Assembly: GCA_963779615.1 (NCBI GenBank)
Contig: CAVZZA010000001.1
Span: forward strand, 384,001 to 448,000
Direction: 5' to 3'
Length of the DNA: 64,000 nt
Origin: an uncultured Nitrososphaeraceae archaeon
Lineage (GTDB): Archaea; Thermoproteota; Nitrososphaeria; Nitrososphaerales; Nitrososphaeraceae
Shown here: piece after piece, positions 20,908-46,551 of the stretch
How the letters are laid out: each line of letters starts with the position of its first letter
Numbering within the stretch: the stretch's first letter is position 1
Program-made: the position numbers and the translations under genes
Notes under the pieces: model-generated
What the model saw: only the letters and a program-made list of their open reading frames with translations
Databases searched by the model: none
Told to the model about the DNA's origin: nothing

Positions 20908-21031
20908 GCCGGGGTACCGAAGCTAGGTAAGCGTCAAAGGCCCTAAAAGGGGTCAGCCTCGAGATCACACAAAAAAAAATAAGACAGCTGATGTCCTCTT
21001 GGACTCGTGGGTTCAAGTCCCACTCCCGGCG
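20908..21031 (+). tRNA. tRNA-Ser(CGA) with a D-arm intron and an anticodon-loop intron
   Basis: Acceptor GCCGGGG/TCCCGGC plus G; anticodon stem TCAGC/GCTGA with CT-CGA; variable arm GTCC-TCTT-GGAC; T arm GTGGG-TTCAAGT-CCCAC. Confidence 0.88.
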
Positions 21032-21182
21032 CCCTACTTGTGAATTCTTTCACTAATCTTAAATATTCAGACGAATTACGTTATAATGTCTGGATTGGTA
21101 TCTACTGAAGAAAATTGCAATTAGCTAATAGGTTTACAATTTCTAAAATAGCAATAAATATGATTTATATCCATTTTTTGTA

Positions 21183-21911
21183 ATGATAGACAAGAAATTA
21201 TCGCTTATTACCATTCATGATGTAAACCCCTCATGCGCCGAAAAATTGCAAATAATAACAGATGAACTCAACAAGTTAAATGTAAAATACAATCTAAGTA
21301 TTGTTCCGAATTACAATAAAAAGCATAATTTGAAGGATAACCCTGCTTTTTGTAATCAAATATCTACGTTACTACAATCAGATAATATAGAACTCACTTT
21401 ACATGGGCTATACCATCAAATAGATGGAAAAATGGAAGATTTTGATTCCCAATCAAAAGAGGAAGAAATAAAAGATATAAAACAAGGTTTAGATATCCTA
21501 TCTTCAGTAAAGCTGCCAACACCTTCAACATTTATACCACCAGCATGGTATTTGAGCCGCCAAGCTATAGAAGCACTAAAGGATTATGAATTTGATATAG
21601 CAGAGGCAAGGTCGGATTTAGAATTCATAAAGAGGGGCAAGAAGTATATAATTTCCCCGGTTATGAATTGGGACCAACAGGGAGACAAAGAAAAAAACAA
21701 AAAAATATTGGATCCGAATAAAAAAGAGTTTTACACTCATTTGTTTAATATTGGTGGAGAGTCATATGGACTGTTTAGGATGGCCATTCATCCTCCGTAT
21801 GATCCTGACGGTGCATTAGCAGATCAGATTGAAATGATAAAATATCTAAAAGAAAAAGAAGGCTATAATTTTGTTAACTATTCTGACTTAGTTCAAATAG
21901 AGGAATCCTGA
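21183..21911 (+). CDS. DUF2334 / polysaccharide deacetylase-like protein
   Basis: IHDVNP, LHGLYH, FIPPAW, RMAIHP. Confidence 0.85.
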   Translation: MIDKKLSLITIHDVNPSCAEKLQIITDELNKLNVKYNLSIVPNYNKKHNLKDNPAFCNQISTLLQSDNIELTLHGLYHQIDGKMEDFDSQSKEEEIKDIKQGLDILSSVKLPTPSTFIPPAWYLSRQAIEALKDYEFDIAEARSDLEFIKRGKKYIISPVMNWDQQGDKEKNKKILDPNKKEFYTHLFNIGGESYGLFRMAIHPPYDPDGALADQIEMIKYLKEKEGYNFVNYSDLVQIEES

Positions 21912-21970
21912 CTACTTAAAGCCCTGTATTGTCAAAATTAATATTCTATATCCATATATCCCCTTAGTAT

Positions 21971-22411
21971 TTGGTAACCATACGTGAAATAGAAAATGAG
22001 GATATAGATAGAGGGTTTTTGGAGGTCCTAGATAATTTACTTTCTCCGGACATTGATAATAAAACTGCTAAAAACATATTAAAAGAAATAAAATCAAATC
22101 CATTGCATAAAACATTCATTGCAAAAGATGATGTAACCGATAAAATAGTAGGAACAACAACATTGCTTGTAGAGCCTAAATTTATCAATAAAGGTATGAT
22201 AGTAGGATATATCGAAGATGTGTCGATAAATAAGGACTATGAAGGATTAGGAATTGGACGGCAAATTGTGGATCATGTAACTAATTACGCCAAAACAATA
22301 CAACAATGCAAAAAAGTAATACTATACTGTTCAGAAAAGAATAAGCCATTCTATGAAAAGTTGGGCTACAAGTCAGCTAATGATACATTTGTTATGACGT
22401 TAGAATTTTAA
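21971..22411 (+). CDS. GNAT acetyltransferase, glucosamine-6-phosphate N-acetyltransferase (Gna1)-like
   Basis: EPKFI, GYIEDVSI, GLGIG, KVILYCSEKNKPFYEKLGY. Confidence 0.85.
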   Translation: MVTIREIENEDIDRGFLEVLDNLLSPDIDNKTAKNILKEIKSNPLHKTFIAKDDVTDKIVGTTTLLVEPKFINKGMIVGYIEDVSINKDYEGLGIGRQIVDHVTNYAKTIQQCKKVILYCSEKNKPFYEKLGYKSANDTFVMTLEF

Positions 22412-22822
22412 TCTATTTTGGCATACCCTAGACAAAAGAAAATAAAACATCCTTCAATAACATAGTTATTAGAATAAATTAAGTTTTTACTTAAACTAAT
22501 AATGATCTCAAATATTGATTGGAATTGCTTAAACCTATCCAATAAGAATGCCCTATTTTTGGACTACATTCGGTTCAAGTATTATATAATAATTGAATTC
22601 CAATTTATCCCCTATTATTAAAAATTTGCAATATATGTCAACCTATTGTATGTTCTCAACCAAGTTTCAATGTTATCAATTGTTTTCAATCTGTTGTATC
22701 ACTCCCATCAACCTCCAAGCATTAATCAATTAGCCATATAATCAACTTTTTTGATTTTTTCATTTTTTAAAAAGCAATACGATTTATCTCCTCATCTAAT
22801 GACGTACTAAAATATAATAGGA

Positions 22823-23884
22823 ATGATAACGAGATATGTCCTTATGAGTATCAATAATATCAATAATTATTTATTTCAAAATCAAACTATTATCAATCTT
22901 TACGAATCAGGCATTCCGTCAGATGTTATTGCCTCTCAGCTAGATATAAACACAGTGGATGTTATGGATACACTCACAAATAGACAGAAGGACATCAAAA
23001 GAAAGGAAAAATCAGTTATGGATGCATCCTTAACACCAAAAATAGGAATGATGTATTTAGACTCAGTTTTTGATGTGGAGTCTGCGATAAAGGAAACCCA
23101 AAAAAGAATATGGAGGGAATTAAAAGTGGAGCCAAAGTTCAGCATACCTTTAGAAAGCTCCAATGGACTGCTCGAGAAATTTGTGAATACCAATGTAGAC
23201 CTTGTAATTCTATATGTTGATTTGGTAAGTTCTACAAAGCTTTCTATGAATTTGCCCTTGAAGAGATTGGCTCCAATAATACAAGCGTTTACCCAAGAAA
23301 TGTCTATTATTGTAGACGCATACGGGGGTTATGTCCTTAAATATGTAGGAGATGCGGTAATAGCTTTCTTTTTCACAGAAAAGGATAATTTGCATTTGCC
23401 CTGTATTAATGCAGTTAATTGCGGGTATTCCATGGTAAAGATCATAAATGAAGGCATAAACCCTATTTTGGAAGAATACGGCTATCCCGAATTAGGCATA
23501 AGAGTTGGCATTGATGTGGGTGAAAATGCAGTAGTTCAATATGAGTTCAAAACAAAGACATATGATATTGCTGAAGAACAGAATCTAAAGGAAAATGCAT
23601 TGAATAATGACCGTAACAAAAAATATAATACAAATACATTGCAGGAGCCGCATTTGGATGTTTTAGGATATACAATTAATATTGCGACAAAAATGACATC
23701 GTTTGCAAGTCCAAATCAAATCATTATCGGAGAAGCGGTATACGATAAATTAGATGGTAAAAAGCAAAATCGATTCAATAAATTACACATCGATAACAAA
23801 TCATGGAATTTCCTAGATACTACTACTGGAAATATTTATGGCGTATATGGTAATTCAGTGCAATTTCCAAATGTATACGAATGA
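22823..23884 (+). CDS. class III adenylate/guanylate cyclase domain protein
   Basis: LYVDLVSST, KYVGDAVIAFF, IRVGID-G, DVLGYTINIATKM. Confidence 0.92.
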   Translation: MITRYVLMSINNINNYLFQNQTIINLYESGIPSDVIASQLDINTVDVMDTLTNRQKDIKRKEKSVMDASLTPKIGMMYLDSVFDVESAIKETQKRIWRELKVEPKFSIPLESSNGLLEKFVNTNVDLVILYVDLVSSTKLSMNLPLKRLAPIIQAFTQEMSIIVDAYGGYVLKYVGDAVIAFFFTEKDNLHLPCINAVNCGYSMVKIINEGINPILEEYGYPELGIRVGIDVGENAVVQYEFKTKTYDIAEEQNLKENALNNDRNKKYNTNTLQEPHLDVLGYTINIATKMTSFASPNQIIIGEAVYDKLDGKKQNRFNKLHIDNKSWNFLDTTTGNIYGVYGNSVQFPNVYE

Positions 23885-24664
23885 TAACCATATCCATGCT
23901 ATAAAATTTACTCAATCTAATGGAATATCCGGATTCCCAAATGAATAGAAAAAGAAGTAAAGTTCCTCATAATATTTGGCATTTAATGTATTTAGGCATT
24001 TATTGAATAAATCCAAATACATTTCATAAAATATGGGCTGAAGACTATATAATTCAGATCATTAGGGCATTTATTGCAACCATTGATAAATTATTCAATT
24101 ATTTGCATAACCAGTAAATATTTTGGATTTTATAAGGTAATCGGGCAACGACAAATCTGAACAAAAGCCTTACTCACGTTAATTTTTAAATGTAATGTAG
24201 AATTATGTCAAATAACCTTCTTAGTCATGCAGATAAACTTACTAGTTTAGGTTTCCATTCATTGTTCAATCACATCCCACTCGGTCCACTTATGGTACTA
24301 ATATACGTTCACAAGAATAATGATATATCAACAATGCCTTACAACTCAATGGAATTAGATCTCTTTACTGGTTTCAAATGCCATAAGGTCCACTCAAACG
24401 AAACAGAGACATTAAGAAGATTGGTGATATTTTTTGATTTTATTGCTACCACAAGTTAATCTAAATGAAGGATGTAAAATTTTTATAAAAGACAGCCAAG
24501 AGAATGCAATTTATCCATTGTACACTACTTTTCAATTGTATATATCAAAAAGAAAGACTAGAAGGATCCAATTAGAGAATCAAGGTTAAATCCTGTATTT
24601 ATTGGATAACTGCATTAATGACTATACCAATATGATAATTGAGAACTAGGTGAATATATTTTCA

Positions 24665-24700
24665 TAAATCCTTGAATGCAAATATATGGTTCAAATCCTA
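24665..24700 (+). repeat. tRNA T-arm-like att repeat, copy A
   Basis: TAAA-TCCTTGAATGCAAATATATGG-TTCAAATCC; aligns without gaps to copy B. Confidence 0.7.
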
Positions 24701-24732
24701 TTCTCTCTTTTTATGTTAATAGGTATAATAGA

Positions 24733-24777
24733 CGAATATGCGAGTATACTATATGGATTCAAGTCCTAATCTTCGTC
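24733..24777 (+). repeat. tRNA T-arm-like att repeat, copy D
   Basis: CGAA-TATGCGAGTATACTATATGGA-TTCAAGTCC...CTTCGTC; tail shared with copy E. Confidence 0.65.
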
Positions 24778-24900
24778 CATAGTTTGATTATCTAAAAACA
24801 AGTTTGGAGCATTAGTTACCATACACATTAACAATCATTATAATCACGACAAAGATGATAGAATTAGAATGGGATGAAATGGTATTTAGATTTTCTTTTT

Positions 24901-25098
24901 CTATTTCATATCCACGCCTATAATTCCCCCGTTTCCCCAATTCTCTTTGGAAATCTCATAGATCAAGATTCTTACCTTTTCCTCTTGTGTTTGCATAATC
25001 CTAGCGGTCTCTCTTGTCAACGCCTTGATCAACTCTCTCTTCTGCTCTACAGATCTTCCTTGGCTTATAGTAATTTCAATTACAGGCATTTTTATCAT
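24901..25098 (-). CDS. 4-oxalocrotonate tautomerase family protein
   Basis: (M)PVIEI, GRSVEQKRELI, ENWG-GG; catalytic Pro1 if started at the internal ATG. Confidence 0.93.
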   Translation of the reverse strand: MIKMPVIEITISQGRSVEQKRELIKALTRETARIMQTQEEKVRILIYEISKENWGNGGIIGVDMK

Positions 25099-25128
25099 TT
25101 ATTTTAAAATTATTTATTATTATATTAT

Positions 25129-25166
25129 CCCCTGTTTTTACAACAGGGGTTCAGGCCCTGCTCCCT
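25129..25166 (+). repeat. tRNA T-arm-like att repeat, copy H (hairpin subtype)
   Basis: CCCCTGTT-TTTAC-AACAGGGG-TTCAGGCCC; homologous to copy I. Confidence 0.6.
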
Positions 25167-25224
25167 AAGAATATTTTAAATGACTAGACTAACACGATAA
25201 TTGAAAATTAAATAACATACTTCA

Positions 25225-25267
25225 TAAACCCGTGAATGCAAGTAGAAGGTTCAAATCCCATGCCTCC
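25225..25267 (+). repeat. tRNA T-arm-like att repeat, copy B
   Basis: TAAA-CCCGTGAATGCAAGTAGAAGG-TTCAAATCCCA. Confidence 0.7.
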
Positions 25268-25395
25268 ATTGTGTACCCTATATTTACATAACAGGAAAAC
25301 AAGAGAGGTTATGACAATCAAGTATGGCAATTCATGCCCACTAAACTATGAACTACTACTTTATTTAAATAATATTTTTATTTGATTTATTTCAG

Positions 25396-26421
25396 ATGCA
25401 AGTAGGAATTGACAGTTTTGCGGCTTTTCATAATGATACCAAGAAATCAGTAAGCTCATCCGAACGCTTGCAAAGATTGGTTGAACAAATTGAACGGGCC
25501 GATCAAATTGGATTGGACGTATTTGGAGTAGGCGAGCATCACCGTCAGGGATTCCTTGATTCTGCTCCAGCCGTCATCCTGGGAGCGGCGGCAGCACGAA
25601 CTAAACGCATACGCCTCACCAGTGCAGTAACGGTATTGAGTGCAGCCGATCCAGTAAGGGTGTTCCAAGAATTCGCAACTTTGGATCTCCTGTCTCAAGG
25701 TAGGGCGGAGATGGTAGTGGGTCGCGGCTCATTCATAGAGGCATTCCCATTGTTTGGCCTGAGGTTGGATGACTACGACTCCCTTTTTTCAGAGAAGATA
25801 GATTTGCTCTTAAAGGTTCGTGACAATGAGCATGTCCATTGGTCCGGCAAATATCGACCTCCTCTAACTGGACAGGGAATCTATCCAAGGCCGATGCAGG
25901 AGCCTCTGCCGATATGGATAGGCGTGGGTGGAACTCCGGAATCTTTTGTTAGGGCTGGCTTACTAGGGTTACCACTGATGGTCGCAATTATCGGCGGCGA
26001 AACTCGCAGTTTCAAACCATTAATAGATCTCTACAGAGAGGCAGGAAAAAGGGCCGGCCATTTACCACATAAGCTGAAGGTTGGGATACATTCACTTGGA
26101 TATGTAGCAGGGAGCACTCAAAAGGCGGTTGATGACTTTTTTCCAGGCTATGCACGCAGCATGAACGAAATCGGAAAGGAACGCGGCTGGCCTCCGATAA
26201 CCCGTATGGATTTTGAAGCCCAGCGGGGTCCCAACGGCGCGCTACTCATAGGCAATCCGGAAGAAGTTACAGAGAAAATCATCAGACACAGTCAAGGCCT
26301 CGGTGGTATATCTCGCATTACTTTCATGATGAACCCCGCATCGTTACCTCACGAAAAGCTCATGCAAGCTACGGAATTAATAGGTTCACGCGTAGTTCCT
26401 GTCCTACATGAACTCGGTTAA
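25396..26421 (+). CDS. LLM-class (luciferase-like) flavin-dependent oxidoreductase
   Basis: GVGEHH, RLTSAVTVLSAADPVRV, GRGSFIEAFPLFG, GVGGTPES. Confidence 0.95.
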   Translation: MQVGIDSFAAFHNDTKKSVSSSERLQRLVEQIERADQIGLDVFGVGEHHRQGFLDSAPAVILGAAAARTKRIRLTSAVTVLSAADPVRVFQEFATLDLLSQGRAEMVVGRGSFIEAFPLFGLRLDDYDSLFSEKIDLLLKVRDNEHVHWSGKYRPPLTGQGIYPRPMQEPLPIWIGVGGTPESFVRAGLLGLPLMVAIIGGETRSFKPLIDLYREAGKRAGHLPHKLKVGIHSLGYVAGSTQKAVDDFFPGYARSMNEIGKERGWPPITRMDFEAQRGPNGALLIGNPEEVTEKIIRHSQGLGGISRITFMMNPASLPHEKLMQATELIGSRVVPVLHELG

Positions 26422-26530
26422 ATCGATCGAAAGCATAGTTTTCGACGCGACAATAAAATTTCGAAGCGTACATTTAATATTTGAAACAGCCATTTAATTC
26501 GTCTTTTTATTTGTATTGGTATACATATAT

Positions 26531-26566
26531 CAAACCCGTGAATAAAAGATGGTTCAAATCCCACCC
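26531..26566 (+). repeat. tRNA T-arm-like att repeat, copy C
   Basis: CAAA-CCCGTGAATAAAAGATGG-TTCAAATCCCAC; 3 nt shorter than copy B. Confidence 0.7.
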
Positions 26567-26884
26567 TATTCCACCTGTAACTCTATTACCAGATTATTGG
26601 TTGATTGAATTCCATTCAAATGAGAAGGTTTGTATAAATCTGTTTGATGCAATCATGGAAAATTTTAATGTACGACTCCATGATTATACAGTATGGAGTC
26701 CCAACCTTCAGCATCATTAAGCTGAAAGATCTATATGCCTAAAGCTCCATGTCTTTTAAACATATGAGTTGCATTTTTAATAATCGATACCATTTTATCG
26801 CGATTCTTTTTTGGTAACCGGTGTATTGTTATTAAATTATGTTTTCTATTTGTAAGTTCTTCTTCTGGCAGAGTTAAATTTAGA

Positions 26885-27349
26885 TCACTCATTACTTCCA
26901 TTTACCTCCGTCTTAATAAAATTCTCAAGTCTTTTGACATACCAATCCCAGCCCTCATTGTGCTCATCATATTGCAACCGATCCGCATTTGTAAACCCGC
27001 TATGGGTTAAAGTTAATTTCGTTTTATCCCTCTCTAGTTGATAAAGCTTCCAGGTAACAATAGTGTCTTTACTGTAATCAGGTTTTGTTGTAAATTTCCA
27101 AGTGTAAGATAGCTCTTTATTTGGGATGATACTAATAATTGTTCCAACAACATCATGATCTTTTTTTTCTTTTGTAACTTCCTTTGAAAACCTAAAAAAT
27201 ATTTTTCCTCCAACTCGTGGTTCTACGGTTGCTATGTTGGGGAACCACTGAGCCAGCCGCTCAGGGTTAATTAGAGCTGAATACACTTTGTCCACCGATG
27301 CATTTATTACTATTTCTTTTTTGATTGTGTCATAATCTGTATCATTCAT
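26885..27349 (-). CDS. SRPBCC/AHSA1-like protein
   Basis: INASVDKVYSAL-PERLAQWF, TKLTLTHSGF, GWDWY. Confidence 0.92.
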   Translation of the reverse strand: MNDTDYDTIKKEIVINASVDKVYSALINPERLAQWFPNIATVEPRVGGKIFFRFSKEVTKEKKDHDVVGTIISIIPNKELSYTWKFTTKPDYSKDTIVTWKLYQLERDKTKLTLTHSGFTNADRLQYDEHNEGWDWYVKRLENFIKTEVNGSNE

Positions 27350-27672
27350 CCCTTTTCCTTTTCCTTTTCCTTATTACTTGTATTCTCTACAAACTCTTTA
27401 AGATTTTCGAGACTATGCCCCCACATTTTATCAAAAAAATCCTTTATTTCTATAGTTGTTTTAGGGTTAATTGAATACCTTTTTTTCTGTCCCTCTCTGG
27501 TTTCCTTTATCAGGTCTGCATCCTTTAAAATCCTTAAATTGGTAGATACAGCAGCCAACGTTGTATCAAAATGCTTGGCTATCTCTGAAGGATACATTTC
27601 GTGTTCCCTTAGTAGCAATAAAATTCGCCTTCTATTATCTTCAGCTAGCGCTTTCCAAAGCGAACCTGTCAT
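27346..27672 (-). CDS. ArsR/SmtB family transcriptional regulator
   Basis: KALAEDNRRRILLLL, VSTNLRILKDADLI; 4-bp overlap with the SRPBCC gene. Confidence 0.93.
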   Translation of the reverse strand: MTGSLWKALAEDNRRRILLLLREHEMYPSEIAKHFDTTLAAVSTNLRILKDADLIKETREGQKKRYSINPKTTIEIKDFFDKMWGHSLENLKEFVENTSNKEKEKEKG

Positions 27673-27697
27673 TATAATAATAAAATAGTTGTATAGT

Positions 27698-27715
27698 TAT
27701 TTAAATATTTAAATA
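27698..27715. promoter_or_regulatory. 18-bp perfect palindrome, candidate ArsR operator / divergent TATA region
   Basis: TATTTAAATATTTAAATA in the 65-bp gap between the divergent ArsR and DUF899 genes. Confidence 0.5.
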
Positions 27716-27737
27716 TAATCGATTCTATCTTATCCCA

Positions 27738-28496
27738 ATGTCTATAGAAGAGCAAAAAGAAAGAAATGAAAATGACGAAAGGAATGTCTTTGATAATCAT
27801 AAAATTGTTTCGCAAAGTGAATGGATGGAAGCTCGCAAAGATCTATTAACAAAAGAAAAAGAATTTACCATTCTACGTGATCAACTTAATCAAAAGATAC
27901 GAGACCTGCCATGGGTCCAAGTTGATAAAGAGTATGTATTTGATGGACCCACCGGAAAACAAACTTTGTCAGAACTTTTTGATGGCAGAAGTCAATTAAT
28001 TGTATATCATTTTATGTATGGTCCTAGTTGGGATGCAGGATGCCCATCATGTTCCTTTTGGGCAGATAACTTTAACGGAATAGGTATGCATTTGAACCAA
28101 AGAGACGTTACTATGATAGTCGTGTCCAGAGCACCCTATAACAAGATAGATGCATACAAGAAACGCATGGGTTGGAAGTTTAAGTGGGTTTCTTCTTACG
28201 ACTCTGACTTCAATTTCGACTACCATGTATCTTTCACACAGGAAGAGTTAGATAAGAAGGAAGCCTTCTACAACTATATTGCACAAGACACACAAAGTCC
28301 AGAGAAGGAGGGAGTCAGCGTATTTTTCAAAGACCATGAAGGTCGTGTGTTTCACACCTATTCAACATATGCGCGCGGCATCGACATGTTGAATGTGGCA
28401 TATAACTACCTTGACCTAGTTCCCAAGGGACGAGATGAGGCAAATAACGAATTTCGCCAATATTGGGTTCGCCGTCATGATGAATATGGCAAATAA
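27738..28496 (+). CDS. DUF899 family thioredoxin-like protein
   Basis: LFDGRSQLIVYHFM, GCPSCSF, HTYSTYARG, PKGRDE, WVRRHDEY. Confidence 0.95.
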   Translation: MSIEEQKERNENDERNVFDNHKIVSQSEWMEARKDLLTKEKEFTILRDQLNQKIRDLPWVQVDKEYVFDGPTGKQTLSELFDGRSQLIVYHFMYGPSWDAGCPSCSFWADNFNGIGMHLNQRDVTMIVVSRAPYNKIDAYKKRMGWKFKWVSSYDSDFNFDYHVSFTQEELDKKEAFYNYIAQDTQSPEKEGVSVFFKDHEGRVFHTYSTYARGIDMLNVAYNYLDLVPKGRDEANNEFRQYWVRRHDEYGK

Positions 28497-28808
28497 CCGC
28501 TATCCATCAATTCTCTCAAACGATATCTTCATTTAATTTTTACTTTTGTATAATTATAATTGACTTTCCTTTCCTAATGCGGACAACCTAATTCTAAAAG
28601 GTTTGTTCTAATGAGAAAGACATCGAGAGATTTTGATACTTTGTCAAACGAAACCACTTTTTAGTATAGGGTATAGATAAGAAATAGATTCAGAAATACA
28701 GGTCCAATATACCATAAGAAGAAAAAGAATTTCCAGGTATTATGTTGACTAAAAATCAAACCTTGTAGTCATTATTTTCTCCCTGATCATATCCTTTTTC
28801 ATCTTAGC

Positions 28809-29158
28809 AAGCATATCAACTGCTCCTTTGGCATTATTGTAAAAGTTATGATGTTTGGAAAAAGATTTGAAATTAATGTGTCAAATTTAGGTTTCAAGTA
28901 ACTGGCCCATTGGATTTTAGATAAAATTATTTTATATTATATTTACAAACCAGCAAATTTCGTGTAATTAAAAAAAGATTTTATTTAGAAGCATATCAAC
29001 TGCTCCTTTGGCATTATTGTAAAAGTTATGATGTTTGGAAAAACATTTGAAATTAATGTGTCAAATTTATGTTTCAAGTAACGGGCCCATTGAATTTTAG
29101 ATAAAACTATTTTATATTATATTTACAAACCAACAAAATTTCGTGTAATTAAAAAAAG
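28809..29158. repeat. tandem direct duplication of about 170 bp (180-bp period)
   Basis: AAGCATATCAACTGCTCC...CGTGTAATTAAAAAAAG at 28809-28977 and 28989-29158, with few substitutions. Confidence 0.95.
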
Positions 29159-29217
29159 GAGTGAAAAATTATTTTGGGATTCATCCTTATTTATTATTTA
29201 ATCCACATTACCTTTCG

Positions 29218-30107: not shown

Positions 30108-30396
30108 AATATGTCATAATATATTTGAGGTAAGTAGATTACTATGTCAATTTTTTTAGGAGTTTATCAAACTGAAAAGAATTGCATACTAAAATGATAT
30201 GGATCTAATATCAAATATTTGATATGTAGTTTAACTATGTTTTAACGATGTGATTGTTTCACCATTTTAATGTATAGTGATTAAAGGGATTATCATATTT
30301 ACAGAAACCCTCTAACAAAGCTTCAATCTGATATCCTTCACAATTATCTTGTTATCAACATAATGGTGAGATTTAGTATAATAATTTTTTTATATA

Positions 30397-30440
30397 TGAA
30401 TCGGTGAGTATAGGGTATGGCTTCAAGTCCCACTCCTGGC
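30397..30440 (+). repeat. attR-like copy of the tRNA-Ser(CGA) 3' end, copy F
   Basis: TGGCTTCAAGTCCCACTCCTGGC matches tRNA 21008-21030 at 21/23 nt; preceded by mirror arm TGAATCGGTGAGT. Confidence 0.85.
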
Positions 30441-30463
30441 CTCAAAGATGTGTTCTTCCCATA

Positions 30464-30840: not shown

Positions 30841-30895
30841 CCCTGCAATATAAAAATATTAATAAATTCTTTAGGCCTCAAACCAAAAGATACCA

Positions 30896-32524: not shown

Positions 32525-32583
32525 TATCGTGTAGATGAAAGAGAATTTGGCAAGTCTAAATTGAAAGGTGTAGGGAAAAAATT

Positions 32584-38072: not shown

Positions 38073-38118
38073 TGAACCTACAAGTAGCTCTAAAGGGTTC
38101 AAGTCCCCCCCCTTCGTC
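38073..38118 (+). repeat. tRNA T-arm-like att repeat, copy E
   Basis: TGAA-CCTACAAGTAGCTCTAAAGGG-TTCAAGTCCC; left arm matches the reverse complement of tRNA ACTCGTGGGTTCA at 11/13 nt. Confidence 0.75.
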
Positions 38119-38291
38119 AATAGTCTGCCAATTCATGTTAACGTTATAACTTGACAGGATCCATGTATGAAATGGCTGATTCGTTCCTACAGAGGTTCCC
38201 ATTTTTAAATGAAGCAATTAGTGGATTCTATTTATTAGTTCTACTTGTAAGAACAATTAATTTAAATAGTCTCATATGCTATTGGTGATGT

Positions 38292-39245
38292 ATGACAAAA
38301 ATTAGCATAGCTACATTCAATTGTGAAAATCTGTTCGCTCGGTTTAAATTTACAGCAGGCGTAAATCCAGAAGATGCCATAATTGATGGTTGGCTAGCAG
38401 ATAAAACTAAATTCACAATAAATGATGAAACATCTAAAAAACTTACTGCTTTAGCAATCAAAGAGGCTAAAGCCGATATAATAGCCTTACAAGAGGTTGA
38501 AAGTTTGTTGGCGCTACGTCGATTTAGAAACAACTATCTCAAGGGCAAGGGATATGATCATATCATAGTTTTAGATGGTAATGATCCTAGATTTATAGAT
38601 GTTGCAATCATGAGTAAATACCCTTTAGAGAACATTGATACTCATGTGGATGAGTGGAATAAGGAAATAAAATGGTATACGTTTTCCCGTGACTGTTTAG
38701 AATGCGACGTCATTCTACCGGAAAACAAAAGAATAAGACTATTCGTAAACCATTTCAAATCAATGTTTGAAAAAAATGATCCATGTAACGGGAGAAAGAA
38801 GTCCCACAGAAAAAGACAAATCCAAGCTGAACGAGTAAAGGATCTTGTTTTAGACGAATTTCCCAATGGAGAAGGTGAATACGTTATCCTTGGAGATCTT
38901 AATGATTATTTGGAAACTGATTCTCAAGGAGAAACAGCTATTGATGAAATAGCTAATTGGAACATGGTTGAAAACGTTGTAAAAAGACGACCATCAGAGG
39001 ACCAATGGACTCACTATTATGAAGGCAATTCTCAGTGCGGCTTTCCAAAAACATACAAACAACTAGATTATATACTGCTATCTAAAACATTAGCTGACGC
39101 AAATTTACCTTCAATTCCAAAGATTATTCGCAAGGGACTTCCCATAAACGCTGATAAGTACACTGGCCCCAGGTTCGAGGGAGTTGGAAATAAAAAACCA
39201 AAAGCATCCGATCATTGTCCTGTTGTTGTGGAAATCAACATATGA
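38292..39245 (+). CDS. endonuclease/exonuclease/phosphatase (EEP) family protein
   Basis: ATFNCENLF, ALQEVE, GNDPR-ID, FSRDCL, NHFKS, GDLND, LDYIL, SDHCPV. Confidence 0.95.
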   Translation: MTKISIATFNCENLFARFKFTAGVNPEDAIIDGWLADKTKFTINDETSKKLTALAIKEAKADIIALQEVESLLALRRFRNNYLKGKGYDHIIVLDGNDPRFIDVAIMSKYPLENIDTHVDEWNKEIKWYTFSRDCLECDVILPENKRIRLFVNHFKSMFEKNDPCNGRKKSHRKRQIQAERVKDLVLDEFPNGEGEYVILGDLNDYLETDSQGETAIDEIANWNMVENVVKRRPSEDQWTHYYEGNSQCGFPKTYKQLDYILLSKTLADANLPSIPKIIRKGLPINADKYTGPRFEGVGNKKPKASDHCPVVVEINI

Positions 39246-39420
39246 TCTTTTTAAGATATATTAATTTAAAAATCCAGCAACAGATTCTATGTCGTCATCA
39301 ATTGTTTTATTTTGTGTCTCCTAATGAACTTTTTATTGAAATAGGACAGTTAAACAAGTTTTCGCCTTTATGTTCCTGATCTATCTTGCAAATTCATCCA
39401 ATTCCTTAATGTAACTAAAC

Positions 39421-39454
39421 AAACCACCCGTTTGAAAGACAAAGGTTCAAATTC
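39421..39454 (+). repeat. tRNA T-arm-like att repeat, copy J (degenerate)
   Basis: CACCCGTTTGAAAGACAAAGG-TTCAAATTC; followed by the same downstream block as copy D. Confidence 0.55.
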
Positions 39455-39705
39455 AAACTTGGTATGATTTAATTTTTTAAAAATAACTTTGGGGCTTTGG
39501 CGACTACACACATTAACAATCAATCAATATGATTGATTACAACACGGATGTCAGCATGAGAATGGATAAAATGGGTTTTAATAATTGAAAAATCGCACTT
39601 AACAGTCTACTGGAATTTACATTTCCTTATATGGATGCCAACGATTTGTGTTTCTTATTTGTTTTATCAAATTTCAACAAGTGAAATCTTTAATATCTTT
39701 GGCTA

Positions 39706-40242
39706 ATGTACATAGTAGCAGAGAATATGGAAGCTGTTGATTGCATTGCAACCAAGCTTGACATAAGAGAATACAGTAATGAGGATGTTCCGGCGAATAT
39801 AAGGTCAAGTATTCTTGAAGCAGCCAGGCTAACGGGCACAGGCCTTAATACTCAACACTGGAGATTTGTTTTGGTTAAGGATAAAGACAACCTCAAAAGG
39901 TTGGCGGAGGATAGCACAAGTGGAAAATGGGTTGCTGGTGCTAATTTTGCAATAATAGTATTAACAAATCCAAAATATGGTTTCCACATGATTGATGCGG
40001 GGAGAGTCTTGCAGAATATGCAGTTGGCAGCCTGGGATCAAGGAATAGGTTCTGGTTTATTCACGGGTGTAAAAGAAGAAAAACTTAGGAATGACTTTGC
40101 AATTCCGATGGATCTTAATCCCGCTGTTATAGTGGGTTTTGGATATCCTGTTAGGAAACTGACGGGTAAAAGAAAGAATCGCCTACCACGTGATGATCTA
40201 GTTTTCTATGAAAAATATGGTAGAACAAATGAACAAGTGTAA
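39706..40242 (+). CDS. nitroreductase family protein
   Basis: ILEAAR, NTQHWRFVLV, IDAG-LQNMQLAAW-GIGS, GFGYP. Confidence 0.93.
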   Translation: MYIVAENMEAVDCIATKLDIREYSNEDVPANIRSSILEAARLTGTGLNTQHWRFVLVKDKDNLKRLAEDSTSGKWVAGANFAIIVLTNPKYGFHMIDAGRVLQNMQLAAWDQGIGSGLFTGVKEEKLRNDFAIPMDLNPAVIVGFGYPVRKLTGKRKNRLPRDDLVFYEKYGRTNEQV

Positions 40243-40444
40243 TTCTTTATAATCCAAAAGGATATTATACGAATCTAATAAAAAGTCCAATAATATTGTA
40301 TCATTCCACCTTAATTCCAGAGCTTCATATTGTTAATGAGTTTTTGCTGTTCTATTGAAGTAACATAAAAAAGGAATTATTCTGGCCATCAATTTTTGGG
40401 TACGGGAAATTAATAAAAAGGAGAATTTTTTTGACCTGGTATTA

Positions 40445-40806
40445 CTATCCTATAAAATCTTCGGATTCAAAGTCAACAAAGCCTATAAAGTCAACATCCT
40501 CGCATTTATTTTTCACTGCATCTAATACGTTTTGCAAATTGTCTCTTATGTCATCTTACTTCCTGCTATCTTACCTTCTTGAAGTTCGTCCTCTAGTGTG
40601 GCCTTCCCATCTGAATCAAGGTCTCCATAAGCCAAAGCTAGTGTTGCAAGAGCAATGCCAACATCGTTGCAGTCTACCTTCGCCTTGTCATTATTCTTAT
40701 GTTTGTCACCACCGGCATATACTGAACTACAAGAAACGCTACTAGCTGCAATCATCATTGCTATGAATAAGATTATAGTAAACAAATTGTGACTAATTTT
40801 AGTCAC
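40445..40806 (-). pseudogene. secreted hypothetical protein, frameshifted
   Basis: Signal-peptide ORF stops at 40546; another frame continues DDIRDNLQNVLDAVKNKCEDVDF... to TAG at 40445. Confidence 0.6.
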
Positions 40807-41161
40807 AAGTCTTCTTAAATCAAATCATATATAAGTTTTATTTGAATAAGGAGTTTGATTTCAATTATGGAAAATAAGGCATAATCAATTTCAAAACTTT
40901 CCAAATTCAAGGCTTAATTTAACCTGCAGATTGATAACCTGAATCTTGGCCAGGTTGATGACAATAACCTCTTTTTTTACGTAAAACATGATATCCCCAA
41001 TACAAATTCTTTATTTGCATAACCATGAATTTCGTTATTCCATGATTGAACTTTAATTAATTTAATAGACTATAGGCATAAAATCTAACAGTGATATATT
41101 GGTTCTGTTTTGCATACTTTATTTTTTAAATCGATATAGAATTGGAATCAACAATACTATC

Positions 41162-41206
41162 AGATTCCCTGTTTTAATAACAAAGGTTCAGGTCCCGCCT
41201 GCCCCT
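41162..41206 (+). repeat. tRNA T-arm-like att repeat, copy I (hairpin subtype)
   Basis: GAT-TCCCTGTTTTAATAACAAAGG-TTCAGGTCCC; homologous to copy H. Confidence 0.6.
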
Positions 41207-41321
41207 GGTTTGATTTTTTAAGAAGAAGTTGGACGTTTAGGGGCCTTATCAAATCAGAACCATTTTGCTGATCTGCTTTCATATAGCACACTTGCGCTAT
41301 TAGGATTTCCCCAAATTGCTT

Positions 41322-42362
41322 TCAAAATACTTTAGAGATTGTGCGGTTATCTGACTCATTTAGAATAACGCCTTTGCCATATAATGCATTCCTATTATTA
41401 GGATCTATTTTCAGGGCTTTGTCAAAATACTTTAGGGATTCAGAATGGTTGCCCGAAATATCCAGGGCAAAGCCTTTGATGACTAGCGCATTTATGTTGT
41501 TTGGATCTATTTTTAGGGCTTTGTCAGCATACACTATGGCTCCTGTATAGTTACCCAACTTGAACAGATAATCACCCTTACCATTCAATGCAAAAGTATT
41601 CATGGGGTTAACCGAAAGGGCTTTGTCAATGTACATCATGGCTCCAGTATTATTGCCCAGGTGATCCAGAGCCAAGCCCTTGCCATGTAGCGCATTTGCC
41701 ATATTAGAACTCAGTGAAAGGGCTTTGTCAAAATACTTTAGGGATTCAGAATGGTTGCCCGAAATATCCAGGGCAAAGCCTTGATTATTTAATAAAAGTG
41801 TGTTATTTGGATCCGTCTCCAGGGCTTTGTCAAAATACTTTACTGCTCCTGCGTAATCTTTCAGCCCATATAGAGACACACCTTTATCAAACAAAATATT
41901 TTTGCTTGTAGAATTTACTGTCAGGACTTTGTTAAAAAAACTTGTAGATCCTGTTTGATTGCCAAGATTATACAGTATTGCACCCATGCCTGTCAGTGCA
42001 TCCATATTATTGGGGTCCATTCTCAGGACTTTGTCATAGTATTTTATAGCTTCAGTGTGATTGCCTGAGGTATCTATGGATAAGCCTTTACCATGTAGCG
42101 CTTCCGTATTGTTGGGGTCCATTCTCAGGACTTTGTCATAGTATTTTATAGCTTCAGTGTAGTTTCCCAGATTGCCAAGTGATTGGGCTTTATCATTTAA
42201 AGCATAAATGTCGGCTAAGGATGTGTTTTGTGCTAATGCATTGGAAGGTAAAGGTAAACTGCTGCTAACGGTCATTACTGCCGGTATGAAAATACTCAAA
42301 ATCGACAGTCCTGTTACAAATATGCAAAATTTTAATAGATCAATTGCACTTATTTTCATCAA
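41322..42362 (-). CDS. secreted or membrane-anchored tetratricopeptide repeat protein
   Basis: Signal peptide and about 8 TPR units (YYDKVLRMDPNN, YFDKALKIDPNN), including near-identical DNA duplications. Confidence 0.93.
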   Translation of the reverse strand: MMKISAIDLLKFCIFVTGLSILSIFIPAVMTVSSSLPLPSNALAQNTSLADIYALNDKAQSLGNLGNYTEAIKYYDKVLRMDPNNTEALHGKGLSIDTSGNHTEAIKYYDKVLRMDPNNMDALTGMGAILYNLGNQTGSTSFFNKVLTVNSTSKNILFDKGVSLYGLKDYAGAVKYFDKALETDPNNTLLLNNQGFALDISGNHSESLKYFDKALSLSSNMANALHGKGLALDHLGNNTGAMMYIDKALSVNPMNTFALNGKGDYLFKLGNYTGAIVYADKALKIDPNNINALVIKGFALDISGNHSESLKYFDKALKIDPNNRNALYGKGVILNESDNRTISKVF

Positions 42363-42523
42363 ATAATTTTATTACCAAACCACGATATTTTAATTTGTGT
42401 CTTTAAAATTAGATTTCAATAACGAAATATTAAGAAACTATGCTTTTACTCCCTATCTATCCACTTTTACAATATGCAAAACTTGTGAGCAGGGCCAGAT
42501 TTAGCATAATGATTTTTTTTGGG

Positions 42524-42574
42524 TGAATCCGCGAGATGGGGTATAGGGTATATTAGAATCCCCACACTCCCTGC
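42524..42574 (+). repeat. att-like repeat, copy G (degenerate)
   Basis: TGAATCCGCGAG...GTATAGGGTAT...CCCACACTCCCTGC; both it and its downstream sequence are homologous to copy F. Confidence 0.65.
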
Positions 42575-42597
42575 TCTTCAAATGGGGTTTTTCCCAT

Positions 42598-42833
42598 ATG
42601 GGCATCATCAAAAAGGCAAAAACAGCAACAGTTGATTCTAAATACTAATCATGATAGTAAGATAATTCAAGTATCAACTGAAAATGATGACGAGGATTGA
42701 TAGAAAAACAGACTCGATTACAAAATCACTTCCAAGGCCTTATTTCACCAGGATTCCAAATGGGTTAGCAAAGGCCAATCCCAACAATGGTAAGGCGATT
42801 CATGATTATATTTTTGCCGGGCTGGCCGAACTT
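42598..42833 (+). pseudogene. second integrase N-terminal remnant
   Basis: MGIIKKAKTATVDS and IDRKTDSITKSLPRPYF...IHDYIFA are paralogous to the 30464-30840 remnant. Confidence 0.65.
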
Positions 42834-42859
42834 TTATTGCAAGTTCGGCCAGCCCGGCA
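42815..42859. repeat. perfect 19-bp inverted repeat with a 7-nt loop
   Basis: TGCCGGGCTGGCCGAACTT-TTATTGC-AAGTTCGGCCAGCCCGGCA. Confidence 0.95.
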
Positions 42860-42892
42860 TATCAGCAATTGCCTCAGCGTTATCGGTAACGG

Positions 42893-43846
42893 TCAATAAA
42901 GAATAGAAGGCATATAGGAGCCGGCCGGCTCATTATACATTCCAACTGTCATAAGGGTAAGCTGCTGAACCAGCCTTAGACCGTTGTCAAGGCACCATCG
43001 AAACAGATGGGTATTTCGACTTGGAATAAGGATACCTGGCCCTCCATAACTTTCAGTTGTAGAGGCAATGAGGGCCTTGAGGTCATCATCAGTAAAACCT
43101 ACAGAGTGGTTAAAGTATGTCAACCCACTGGTGTAGCCTGTAATTTTGTCCCCGTGTAGGACCACTTTGGCAATTCCCTGTTTTATACTGTCCATTAGCT
43201 CAACACTTCTGTCGTGGCCATGAATTGCTTTGCAGACTGCGTCACACGATTTCAAATCCGCTTCAGTTGCTGCCCGAACAGATCTTCCGGGAATTACTGC
43301 TTGGATAGGTTTTCCCTGCATGTTTGATATTGGCTCCCTGATTTCAAACCCTAAAATGGCATACAGAACTAGCGATCGGTTATGGTATGACGATTGGAGC
43401 AAACGTATGGACGGATAGTTTTTGTTTCTGGCTCTCTCCATCACATTGATCATTAACTGCCGACCTACACCTTTGTCCTGGAATTTTGGATCAACTGTTA
43501 TTGGTCCAACTCCTGCCACAATACTTGAGCGTTCATCCAAGAAGTTGCTTCCGATAACCTTATTGCTGTTTTCCCCAGCGTCTTCAGCAACTACAGAATA
43601 GGATCCAGGGCTAGACAGAAAAGAAGACGCCACGTGTATTCCAAAATCAACATTGGGGATTTCACTGGAAAAGCCATGCTTATCGGCGATCCCTGAAAAA
43701 GCCTCAAAAATTATTTTTCCGACCTCGTCCGCATCACCTATGACTCCAGGCCTTAGTCTTAAAGTGCGCTCGGTGTCGCTCATTAATACTCGAATTTGCC
43801 TATCCAAGGTTTTATTCTTTTTCTTTGCTTTTCCGGACCTGTTCAC
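42893..43846 (-). CDS. GNAT family N-acetyltransferase
   Basis: GSNFLDER, GVGPITVDP-FQDKGVGRQLM, SLVLYA-LGF, YMPSILY. Confidence 0.92.
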   Translation of the reverse strand: MNRSGKAKKKNKTLDRQIRVLMSDTERTLRLRPGVIGDADEVGKIIFEAFSGIADKHGFSSEIPNVDFGIHVASSFLSSPGSYSVVAEDAGENSNKVIGSNFLDERSSIVAGVGPITVDPKFQDKGVGRQLMINVMERARNKNYPSIRLLQSSYHNRSLVLYAILGFEIREPISNMQGKPIQAVIPGRSVRAATEADLKSCDAVCKAIHGHDRSVELMDSIKQGIAKVVLHGDKITGYTSGLTYFNHSVGFTDDDLKALIASTTESYGGPGILIPSRNTHLFRWCLDNGLRLVQQLTLMTVGMYNEPAGSYMPSILY

Positions 43847-44590
43847 AATATTTAATTCATTTTTATAAATCTGAAATTAATAAAATACCCTTGACTTTAT
43901 GCTGTCATTATTGAGCACCGAAATAAACAATAATTTGGACATCATACATAATATTGTGAATCTGCGCATTATCTCAAGTCTCAAGATACAAACTCAAAGT
44001 CAAGAATTAAACGTGCATAGAGACAAATTTTACCAGATGGAACCGCGGCCATGCGGTATGGCTTTCGAGTCCCGTTTTCAGATTAAAGAAAGTTTGTTTA
44101 AATGTGTTACAGGTTTATGAGACTATCCCACAACATTATCAATAATCCATAATAATGAAACAGACAGTTGTATTGCCAATAATACATGCTATATCCAGTG
44201 CCTGCTCACTAGAAGACACATTAAGCAATCGTACTAGATGAGCAAAAGGACAATCAAAACCGCAATTTCACTGGAGCCCAAACTCCAAGCATTATTTGAT
44301 TTGGGTATGGAATAACACCCATCTGTCTTGTTATCTATGGCTTTGATTTAGCACCTTCTATTATTTTGATCAATCCATTCCTAGGAAAAGGGTTTGGACA
44401 TACCTCCATCCTGATTGTTGTAATAATGCAGAATATACCTCAACAGTCATCTCCCTCCCAGATCCCCAATACATCATATGCATATCAAAAAGTTTCGAGA
44501 AATGCGCAGTTTTAGGATCTGGCACTAAATGTTCAACAATGAATACTCTTCCACCATCAGAGGATCCATTGTAAATGTTGGAAGGTATCT

Positions 44591-45633: not shown

Positions 45634-45796
45634 GGTCTGTTTTATGGCCCGCTCATGATTAAGTATAGACCCAATATATAAGAATACAACTAGCATAAGC
45701 AATTCCGTTTGCATTATCGTCGATAGAGATGATATTACCAATAGGATCATGTTTAGACGAATCAGTTCTCTCCTGGTGTGATCAAGTACAGCAAAC

Positions 45797-45831
45797 CATA
45801 AGTGTTATTATATTACGATATAACACTTATG
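45797..45831. promoter_or_regulatory. 12-11-12 inverted repeat, operator- or recombination-site-like
   Basis: CATAAGTGTTAT-N11-ATAACACTTATG. Confidence 0.5.
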
Positions 45832-46216
45832 TCAAGGCTATCAACACAGAATTCATTTCTAAACCTACCTGAAAGAATCCAATGCTTTCCCAATTATGCT
45901 ATCCCTAGGCCATTGTTCCCTTTTAATACCAACACTCATCATTTTTGACCTTTCCACTGGACTGTTCGTTGAAGTCTACTTTAGTCACGGCTTTTCTAAA
46001 TTAATAATGCTTTATTTAGGGAGTTAATTTATTGAGGTTTATTTTGCCTTTTCACTATGCTCTTTGAGTCACGACATGGCATATTCTCATTTATAATACC
46101 CTTCCATTAAGACAGAACTAGCATCCGATCCGCAAAAACTTTTAACGTTTTCCAGCATCAACATCACAAAATGATCAAGAACTTTATATTGGAAGGATCC
46201 CCTCATAATATTATAT

Positions 46217-46432
46217 ATGACTGGTGTAGCGAAAATAATCGAGATAGTTGGCAGTTCGGATACAAGTTGGCAAGATGCAGCACAAGTTGCATTAAATGAG
46301 GCAAAGAAGACAATACACGGTATAACTGGAGTAGAAGTAGGAGACATGACCGCAAAAGTAGATCCAAATAGTGGAAACATAACAGAGTATCACACAGCTG
46401 TTAAAATAGCATTTCGTGTAGAACATAAGTAA
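46217..46432 (+). CDS. dodecin family flavin-binding protein
   Basis: KIIEIVGSS-SWQDAA, A-KTI, EY-VKIAF. Confidence 0.92.
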   Translation: MTGVAKIIEIVGSSDTSWQDAAQVALNEAKKTIHGITGVEVGDMTAKVDPNSGNITEYHTAVKIAFRVEHK

Positions 46433-46521
46433 CCACTATAATAAAATCTCACTTTTCTTTTTTGTTTTGAATAAGTAATCTTCATTCACTTTTCTATAAC
46501 ATCTTTTCTTTTATTCTACTA

Positions 46522-46551
46522 CTACTGTATGCGTTATATGGATTCGAACCC
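46522..46551 (+). repeat. possible T-arm-like repeat, copy K (weak)
   Basis: TATATGGATTCGAACCC; resembles the copy D core but has no clear mirror arm. Confidence 0.35.

Follow-up and report, generated by a model that had tools for sequence, protein, structure and literature searches.

Arrays of repeats that build up behind a small-RNA gene have been described in both bacteria and archaea. According to the account of Dehalococcoides in the sections of PMC3146451 that deal with these islands, ssrA is followed by more than a dozen co-oriented repeats, each with a conserved motif just to its left that does not belong to ssrA; the T loop is given as the point of insertion, and for islands that have no integration module the authors consider a spread by accretion as cis-mobilizable elements. 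The Thaumarchaeota elements surveyed by Krupovic et al. (2019, PMC6563490) are described in that article's text as using tyrosine integrases, 3' parts of tRNA genes (intron-bearing ones included) as targets and short attachment (att) sites, and passages of PMC6563490 and PMC8371274 note that archaeal att sites are reused in tandem, forming arrays, and that integrases are lost after integration. Here we describe an array of this general kind in an uncultured Nitrososphaeraceae archaeon (source genome G000, 3.17 Mb, 36% G+C). It lies in a window of 64 kb, positions 384001-448000 of contig C1, from the first base of which we count all coordinates given without a contig name. The window holds 12 copies of an att-like site in nine junction clusters between 24.6 and 44.1 kb, all on the + strand, which is the direction of a tRNA-Ser(CGA) gene to their left. 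We think it fairly probable that the region is an accretion array of tRNA-integrating elements, most of which are stripped of their integrase and decayed here. An original prediction, made from the letters of this DNA, had proposed that repeated site-specific integration at the tRNA left copies that are tRNA-derived attachment-type sites, and this part is supported, the copies being both anchored and co-oriented. It had added that no described system was a match, which is too strong a statement in view of the tandem islands of Dehalococcoides and of archaeal tandem integration, as far as PMC3146451, PMC6563490 and PMC8371274 describe them in the parts cited here.

The closest analogues would be the Dehalococcoides ssrA tandem islands and cis-mobilizable elements. 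As those islands are presented in the cited sections of PMC3146451, the likeness extends to co-oriented repeats of a small-RNA 3' end within about 100 kb downstream, tandem strain-specific accessory islands, a conserved left motif that does not match the target gene, insertion at the T loop and islands without an integrase. The Dehalococcoides system, on the same account, has a serine recombinase (DsiB, CcrB-like) encoded on the opposite strand, a tmRNA target and one 20-bp core, whereas here we find a tyrosine recombinase, an intron-bearing archaeal tRNA, left arms that resemble tRNA halves, several classes of core and intervals down to 0.34 kb. The integrated elements of archaea, as described in the cited parts of PMC6563490 and PMC8371274, share with our locus the tyrosine integrase, the tRNA 3' target, the short att site, site reuse and integrase loss; the density of the array, the tRNA-half-like arms and the reassortment of arms and cores seen here are unlike what is described for them. 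The name Nitrosocosmicus is absent from the main text of the PMC6563490 survey, whose supplementary tables may list such elements, and a literature search found no paper on such arrays in Nitrosocosmicus within the terms searched. As in a tandem island, there is an intact tRNA at one end, co-oriented copies of its 3' end downstream and a break in synteny; other copies in the window carry other cores. What appears unusual is the combination of 12 sites in 19.4 kb, tRNA-half-like arms, mixed core classes, recurrent tandem pairs and few intervals with a trace of an integrase.

The anchor of the array, tRNA-Ser(CGA), lies at 20908-21031 (+) and has two inserts, which we read as introns in the D arm and the anticodon loop. 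Its layout, read by eye, is acceptor, D arm with insert, anticodon loop CTCGAGA with insert, long variable arm, T arm GTGGGTTCAAGTCCCAC and acceptor. The gene was not seen in the window by ARAGORN or by Rfam at the gathering score, and a genome-wide Rfam tRNA search missed it as well; from a grid of 5120 in-silico variants that each lacked two inserts, ARAGORN gave 975 tRNA calls, most often Ser(cga) (394 calls). The 12 bases that enter the 5' end of the gene (20899-20910) recur at the start of the D-arm insert (20931-20942), a repeat that is absent from G009. Another intron-bearing class II tRNA, by eye a tRNA-Ser(UGA), is found at 3902-4040 (+); it was missed by ARAGORN and by the Rfam scan of the window and scores 39 bits in the whole-genome Rfam search. 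The genomes compared (G-numbers; C-numbers are contigs of the source genome) are all at most about 80-90% identical to the source genome in their DNA, and the genus name Nitrosocosmicus is taken from the source labels of integrase homologues only. In every congener examined tRNA-Ser(CGA) and the three genes upstream of it are kept, at 74-85% DNA identity, and synteny breaks at the tRNA: in six relatives the upstream genes are retained and the downstream genes are not, over 14-60 kb. A right border of the island was sought by comparison with relatives and was not found, the DNA of the window from 44 to 64 kb being scattered elsewhere in closed genomes.

Copies of the site were located with a sequence model of 29 copies (R1), run with filters off on both strands of the whole window. 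At E<0.01 R1 gives nine matches, all on the + strand, namely the stretch from the T loop to the 3' end of tRNA-Ser(CGA) itself and the copies at 24661, 24729, 25222, 26530, 26669, 30393, 38071 and 42520, and at E<0.1 it gives no match outside 21-43 kb. Three further copies, of class B (25121, 39420 and 41159), were detected with a separate B profile. Window-independent profiles, built from copies in other genomes only, could be used for the classes A3 (15 copies), A1 (8) and B (11), and there is none for class A2. The A3 profile finds 30393 (E 1e-11), 26669 (6e-7), 24729 (8e-6), 42520 (4e-4) and a new copy at 44036 (1.3e-3); that for A1 recovers matches at 25224, 24664 and 26529, and that for B matches at 41162 and 39427 and, weakly, at 25127 (E 0.39), again all on the + strand. 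Thus 11 of the 12 copies are recovered by R1 or by profiles from other genomes, the copy at 25121 depending on a profile that contained it; that at 38071 depends on models trained with it. In a first scan of the whole genome with nhmmer, seven of 13 matches at E<1e-3 fell within 18 kb of the 3.17 Mb. The profile used there contained window copies, a circularity that is removed by the independent profiles and by a mixed profile of 13 foreign copies, which again placed the window copies among its best matches in G000.

The leftmost copies form a tandem pair, an A1 arm with a core like the end of tRNA-Val(TAC) at 24661-24715 (R1 E 4e-9; A1 profile 1e-5) and an A3 arm with a 'CTTCGTC'-type core at 24729-24780 (R1 1.4e-8; A3 profile 8e-6), a combination of arm and core that is also present in G007. 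A second pair, B+A1, consists of a B copy at 25121-25183 with an arm like the variable arm of tRNA-Ser(GCT) (B profile 6e-7 with this copy in the training set, independent B profile 0.39) and an A1 copy at 25222-25270 (R1 1.2e-10; A1 profile 1.4e-9); the former is the positional homologue of the inner unit that the tRNA-Val element discussed below has at its right end, and the latter is 84% identical over 77 bp to the attR module of that element. These are followed by an A1 copy at 26530-26574 (R1 9e-7; A1 profile 1e-3) and an A3 copy with its T loop deleted at 26669-26711 (R1 7e-3; A3 profile 6e-7). The A3 copy at 30393-30446 (R1 3.8e-11; A3 profile 1e-11) has a core of the tRNA-Ser(CGA) type, which shares with the tRNA an identical stretch of 15 bases beginning at the T loop, and the A2 copy at 38071-38122 (nhmmer 4.7e-7 and R1 1.7e-7, both trained with it) resembles an A2 copy at C5:845526 of the source genome. 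Two B copies lie at 39420-39470, which is degenerate (B profile 1.8e-5; independent B profile 6e-3), and at 41159-41223 (8.5e-8; 4e-4). An A3 copy with a five-base insert in the T loop, visible in the alignment, is located at 42520-42577 (R1 2.9e-3; A3 profile 4e-4), and the last copy found, at 44036-44090 (independent A3 profile 1.3e-3), reads by its letters as a clear A3 site. The original prediction had listed about 9-11 copies, all in the orientation of the tRNA. Ten of the 11 were confirmed and the orientation holds for 12 of 12, with 26669 and 44036 added to its list; the weak copy at 46522 found no support (R1 E 0.5 on the + strand and 0.23 on the - strand) and is rejected. Profile scans, which it had recommended, show clustering of the matches, as given above, and a strand bias in the window and in congeners. 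A degenerate copy suspected by eye near 28665, after the DUF899 gene, was recovered by no profile and was dropped.

The motif shared by the copies is about 45-55 bases long and consists of TGAAYCC, 13-15 variable bases, GGTTCRARTCCCA and an acceptor-like tail. It had been introduced as T-arm-like, and while a derivation from tRNA stands, the motif is longer than a T arm, with about 20 conserved bases upstream. The mixed profile and the B profile align over their full length with a real class II tRNA-Ser(GCT) (C4:86897-86981), across the anticodon loop, variable arm, T arm and acceptor, and the position of the anticodon is occupied by TGA, CGA or AGA in 16 of 29 aligned copies and by TAA or CAA in nine, as counted by eye. 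Judged by this alignment and these triplets, the motif resembles a class II tRNA 3' half. Left arms fall into the classes A1, A2, A3 and B, and cores into the tRNA-Ser(CGA) end, a tRNA-Val(TAC)-like end, TTCGAGTCCCAAACTTCGTC and its variants, and others. The copies have no 5' half and form no cloverleaf, and ARAGORN and Rfam detect none of them in the window; their T stem pairs in 58% of cells, no better than in slid controls, and RNAalifold finds no consensus fold among them. A working tRNA-like RNA was rejected on these grounds. The first bases of the arm and those of the T arm form an inverted repeat, with 74% of cells pairing versus 10-48% when the two are slid, a pairing that is explained by the make-up of the columns (72.8% in shuffles); neither of the helices tested covaries beyond make-up. 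Many sites in the window are degenerate, with 27% G+C and the T loop deleted or interrupted. Close tandem pairs, 65-226 bp apart, occur three times in the window, two or three times elsewhere in G000 and also in G007, G011 and G015; the genus listing has more of them in G004, G005, G033, G034, G036, G037, G038 and G042. The spacers between paired units are not conserved.

Evidence that these copies are recombination sites comes from the way in which arms and cores combine. A3 and B arms are each found with the tRNA-Ser core and with the 'CTTCGTC' core, unlike A1 arms, which are paired with the same core type in 13 of 13 cases. The 20-base 'CTTCGTC' core stands behind five arm types in five genomes, and the constant block always begins at the first T of the T loop. 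In the congeners G007, G011, G012, G015, G032 and G034, an A3 or B arm is joined to an exact copy of 21-27 bases from the end of the local tRNA-Ser(CGA), and this copy begins at the T loop. Such reassortment at a fixed boundary is the signature of site-specific recombination. In G032, two stretches of 996 bp are 99.6% identical; the arms before them differ, and both stretches start exactly at the first T of the T loop. The right end of this duplication is not at a site, and the core is followed directly by a cargo gene for a dioxygenase, not by an integrase; a recombinase was sought beside the 'CTTCGTC' cores of G032, and the adjoining genes are dioxygenase paralogues. Since the near-identical duplication begins exactly at the T-loop boundary, it is direct evidence that the copies serve as recombination sites and that strands are exchanged at the 5' edge of the T loop or close to it. 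The duplication also shows that an event was recent in at least one species and suggests that the system is still active somewhere in the genus.

Elements with an intact integrase indicate what may have been inserted. The source genome has three matches to PF00589, in stop-free frames of 426-515 amino acids that each lie beside a tRNA; the window has no match to this family and there is no intact integrase beside the array, the nearest one of the family being 113 kb away. The integrase at tRNA-Val(TAC) (511 amino acids) has a SAM-like N domain, a catalytic domain and a C-terminal zinc ribbon, and at 28.8 kb from the tRNA an A1 arm is joined to an exact 23-bp repeat of the tRNA end, with a B-like unit 95 bp inside this true attR. 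This tRNA-Val element is a bona fide model element of the integrase family. A repeat of about 445 bp has one copy just inside the right end of the same element; further copies, 67-81% alike, are found at 1802-2157 of the window, at C1:489.9-490.4k and in about 30 other places on all contigs, and the repeat looks like a miniature transposable element. Homologues of the integrase number at least 2470 at E<=1e-10, and those with names are labelled by their sources as Candidatus Nitrosocosmicus or Nitrososphaeraceae. Away from the tRNA-Ser array, at least one uninterrupted frame of the family (>480 amino acids) was present in all six genomes searched.

Traces of integrases or their flanks occur in the window behind tRNA-Ser(CGA) and behind the copies at 30393 and 42520 only. 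Directly after the tRNA, about 90 bp at 21032-21122 (+) are 78.9-80.8% identical to an integrase-side flank (P') that follows tRNA-Ser in G015, where it leads into an integrase remnant; here no integrase gene is behind it. An N-terminal integrase remnant with flank at 30418-30847 (+) matches residues 83-149 of the tRNA-Val integrase of G000 and residues 9-152 of the tRNA-Ser integrase of G012 (40%) by tblastn, and the flanks of G011 and G012 by blastn. The second such remnant, at 42546-42833 (+), matches residues 8-101 of the G012 integrase (39%, E 6e-10), and 42696-42745 matches G012 by blastn; that two copies lead into integrase remnants, as first proposed, is therefore confirmed. No similarity to an integrase-side flank was found behind the other nine listed copies tested, and tblastn with integrases found nothing behind 26669 or 44036, which were outside that test. 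From these traces at least three ordinary integrase-type elements can be recognized, 21032-30446, 30446-42577 and 42577 onward, with further sites nested inside, the copy at 30393 being the right end of the first primary element and the left end of the second. After the tRNA-Ser of congeners, the integrase is intact in G012 and broken in G034, and stumps are found in the arrays of G004, G007, G011, G015 and G032; integrase remnants follow junctions of an A3 arm and a Ser core in G011, G032 and G034. Archaeal gene capture, as She et al. reportedly set it out in 2001 and 2004, is said to leave repeats of tRNA fragments together with captured genes when elements are trapped. There, splitting of an SSV-type integrase gene on integration causes the trapping, whereas the integrase frames at tRNA-Val in G000 (511 amino acids) and at tRNA-Ser in G012 are whole in the integrated state.

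The pattern recurs across the genus. Co-oriented arrays of sites follow tRNA-Ser(CGA) in seven of the nine congeners with enough contig, with nine copies in G007, three in G011, one or two in G012, three in G015, six in G034 and about 16 over 65 kb in G032; the contig of G004 ends 11 kb after the tRNA, and G018 has no co-oriented copy in the 60 kb that follow it. Site matches in G007, G011, G012 and G015 are on the strand of the tRNA in 16 cases, with one weak match on the - strand in G018, and every listed match in G032 and G034 is on the + strand. R1 finds the motif at E<=0.01 in 34 of 34 genomes of the genus, a count that includes some real tRNAs, and at E<=1e-4 in six of 61 genomes sampled across the order; outside the genus it is of full length only in G073, which belongs to the same family. 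One interval of the G032 array, 12.8 kb long (oriented positions 27351-40194, L053/L054), contains a ParB-like gene, an AID/APOBEC-like deaminase domain and large proteins without a family; no integrase was found among the seven of its nine large frames that were scanned, a set that leaves out one frame spanning two loci, and the interval may be a defence or plasmid-derived module. Elsewhere in G000, a second array is present on the - strand at C3:1114393-1138905, where repeats of the tRNA-Gly(CCC) 3' end lie at 1124067, 1116685 and 1114393, with a further repeat at C1 184845, and C3 also has pairs of identical tRNA-Glu ends at distances of 19 kb and 6.4 kb; integrated elements seem to be common in this genome.

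A likely course of events is that elements with a tyrosine integrase of this Nitrososphaeraceae-wide family repeatedly recombined with the part of tRNA-Ser(CGA) that runs from the T loop to the 3' end, or with copies of this part that had previously been displaced downstream. Every such event would create a hybrid junction, to which the element contributes the left arm, in its own right a diverged class II tRNA 3' half (anticodon loop, anticodon stem and variable arm), and the recombination partner the right core, which starts at the first T of the T loop. The three primary elements would carry older or foreign junctions inside, and tandem pairs at a spacing of 65-140 bp appear to form a regular module at the right end of the elements. 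The integrase genes would have been lost later, leaving two N-terminal stumps and one flank, and many of the sites would have decayed. What remains would be accessory genes (tautomerase, monooxygenase, the ArsR trio, nuclease, nitroreductase, TPR protein and acetyltransferases) between scars that are presumably inert in G000 today.

The genes between the sites, assigned with Pfam, face both ways, with seven on the + and six on the - strand among those that could be named. Four genes that had been described as the only ones between consecutive copies were found to be so in the gene map: a 4-oxalocrotonate tautomerase family gene (24901-25098, -, PF01361), a luciferase-like monooxygenase (LLM; 25396-26421, +, PF00296), an endonuclease/exonuclease/phosphatase (EEP) family gene (38292-39245, +) and a TPR-repeat protein (41322-42362, -). 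A GNAT acetyltransferase (42893-43846, -) is likewise the sole intact gene between 42577 and 44036. The remaining cargo includes a trio of AHSA1/SRPBCC (-), ArsR (-) and DUF899 (+) at 26885-28496, a nitroreductase at 39706-40242 (+), a DUF2334 protein, another GNAT protein, a cyclase and a DUF326 protein. In the G+C profile the LLM gene stands above its neighbours, and G+C jumps between intervals, from 29-34% to 43% at 25-26 kb. At 33149-34639 (+) a gene for a PF03601 (YeiH-like) membrane protein is broken by frameshifts into three overlapping frames and is probably a pseudogene, and five paralogues of the cysteine-rich DUF326 gene with its surroundings (35557-36812) are present on C4 and C5, 84-99% alike. 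At 28804-29158 about 175 bp are duplicated in tandem, the two units being 95% alike; the copy number varies between strains, because metagenome contigs skip about 180 bases there.

The metagenome material compared with the window consisted of contigs only, from runs (X1-X4) that hold 14-30% of the sampled words. Most contigs are collinear with the window across the sites. There is one loose end at 24719, the end of an A1 copy, and in one contig the 815-base stretch 40353-41167 is replaced by 26 other letters, the replacement (40352-41168) abutting a B copy. Within the replaced stretch, 40454-40729 has an 84% paralogue at C5:532097-532373, with copies in G005 and G016, and the stretch is probably a small inserted repeat next to the B site. 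For a joint of 30511 with 42704 the shorter side is only 20 letters long. Other breakpoints (28440, 32743, 37869 and 39209) are not at sites. Among the contig breaks listed, to which 164 further loose ends do not belong, there is no clear enrichment at sites. Paralogous loci are the source of a joint from 38107 and of the loose ends at 25227 and 25261. No circle junction was seen in the contigs, which cannot show rare forms, and this result therefore says nothing about absence.

Several observations sit uneasily with an accretion of ordinary elements that then decayed. Nine junction clusters in the window stand against two integrase stumps and one flank, and in G032 about 14 clusters stand against two short stumps, with no gene of the integrase family in the 73 kb examined; if decay were the whole explanation, more debris of integrase pseudogenes would be expected. 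Five of nine intervals, the four named above and 42577-44036, have a single intact gene that lies 30-180 bp from its flanking sites. Most internal cores in the window match no tRNA of G000, none of whose tRNAs carries the window's non-Ser cores, and these copies were therefore not made by integration into the resident tRNA-Ser itself. The gene modules that G000 and G032 have in common keep their orientation in the array and change their order, the trio and the LLM gene being placed in opposite succession, which also fits the oriented insertion of small units. No recombination, excision or circle has been observed for G000. Together these points lend some weight to the view that small circles without an integrase, each with its own tRNA-half-like site, were inserted singly into the tRNA or its displaced copies by an integrase encoded elsewhere, in the manner of an integron or of cis-mobilizable elements. 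Such a platform would account for the single-gene intervals, tightly bounded by co-oriented sites of different classes, for the uneven G+C of neighbouring intervals, for the excess of junctions over integrase traces (seen in G007 and G034 as well), for the G032 duplicate in which a core runs directly into cargo, and for the intact family integrases that lie away from the array. Cis-mobilizable segments are known from streptococcal integrative and conjugative elements, where they lack integrase and transfer genes, are flanked by att sites and stand in tandem with a related integrative element, and where mobilisation was shown experimentally. Five intervals here (24780-25121, 25270-26530, 38122-39420, 39470-41159 and 41223-42520) have the same anatomy, flanked by att sites and free of integrase and transfer genes; the streptococcal system is bacterial and its mobilisation experimental, whereas the likeness of this archaeal locus is one of anatomy alone.

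No unit, however, recurs with a site at both ends. In the tRNA-Ser island of G011 the LLM homologue is inverted and has a site on only one of its sides, and in that of G032 it is inside a multi-gene interval of 6 kb. The trio, in the same orientation and with 84-95% amino-acid identity, is found at 53-55 kb in the G032 array, where it occupies the right end of a 7.8-kb interval, and in G000 it is at the left end of a 3.7-kb interval. The nitroreductase is 89-91% identical in DNA in G009, G016 and G036, and in G009 it follows tRNA-Ser by 0.7 kb with 91% identity, versus 79% for the conserved upstream genes; no sites were found within 300 bp of it in G016 and G038. EEP homologues in G039 and G002 have site-like copies nearby. 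None of the comparisons of LLM (G011, G032), the trio (G032), nitroreductase (G009, G016, G038, G036) and EEP (G039, G002) shows homology that reaches from one site to the next; what is shared is coding DNA with no more than 90-150 bp upstream of it, at a divergence at which intergenic DNA no longer aligns. The prediction of one- or few-gene circles as the inserted units thus gains no support from these homologues, and three junctions bear traces of ordinary integrase-bearing elements, although most intervals are indeed without an integrase, as it had stated. The right end of the G032 duplication lies off any site, many window sites are degenerate and the genes face both ways, which also speak against such a platform. 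Since no interval recurs from site to site and contigs cannot reveal excision products, we regard the insertion of single cassettes as unlikely; the unusual density, the tRNA-half-like arms, the mixed cores, the tandem pairs and the few integrase traces keep it alive. The integron analogy that came with it does not hold in the strict sense. As in integrons, there is an ordered array whose junctions have a variable left and a constant right part, with single accessory genes between sites, but membership fails on every feature tested: no resident integrase (IntI) or attI is found beside the array, the sites have no conserved fold of the attC type, and the genes share neither a common orientation nor a promoter logic.

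A different possibility, which we rate as rather improbable, is that the tandem pairs (A1+A3 and B+A1) are each one composite attachment region in which the inner unit is predicted to be an accessory binding site of the integrase, so that there were fewer integration events than copies. The recurrence of close pairs in the window, elsewhere in G000 and in congeners agrees with this, as do the B-like unit inside the true attR of the tRNA-Val element, the constant core of A1 arms and the inverted repeat between arm and T arm; the unconserved spacers do not, and isolated copies would be left unexplained. Composite pairs are compatible with the accretion of elements. That the motif is instead a functional element of the cell, such as a tRNA-like small RNA, a processing signal or a terminator, is suggested by its tRNA-like and intergenic character and is, in our judgement, very improbable, given the T stem that pairs no better than slid controls, the lack of a consensus fold or an Rfam match, an orientation that follows the tRNA and not the neighbouring genes, the clustering of copies in islands (seven of 13 within 18 kb of the source genome) and the reassortment of arms and cores at a fixed point.

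Soil ammonia-oxidising archaea differ greatly in their accessory genes, and how these are acquired is poorly known. The locus at tRNA-Ser(CGA) is a hot spot that is conserved in the genus, in which redox, detoxification and regulatory genes lie between scars and the same modules are reordered between species, and the combination of arm, T loop and core provides a simple marker for mapping mobile DNA in the genus labelled Nitrosocosmicus. If the small intervals without an integrase are mobile, they would form an archaeal cassette system; if they are not, the locus would be a well-preserved case of island accretion and decay. It is conceivable, though we would not expect it, that tRNA-Ser(CGA) is a standing platform for gene capture, at which small accessory-gene modules from a shared pool, each with a tRNA-half-like site at its end, are inserted, duplicated and reshuffled at the T-loop boundary by integrases encoded elsewhere in the genome. 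Were this so, the locus would be a working archaeal counterpart of chromosomal integrons, with tRNA halves in place of attC.

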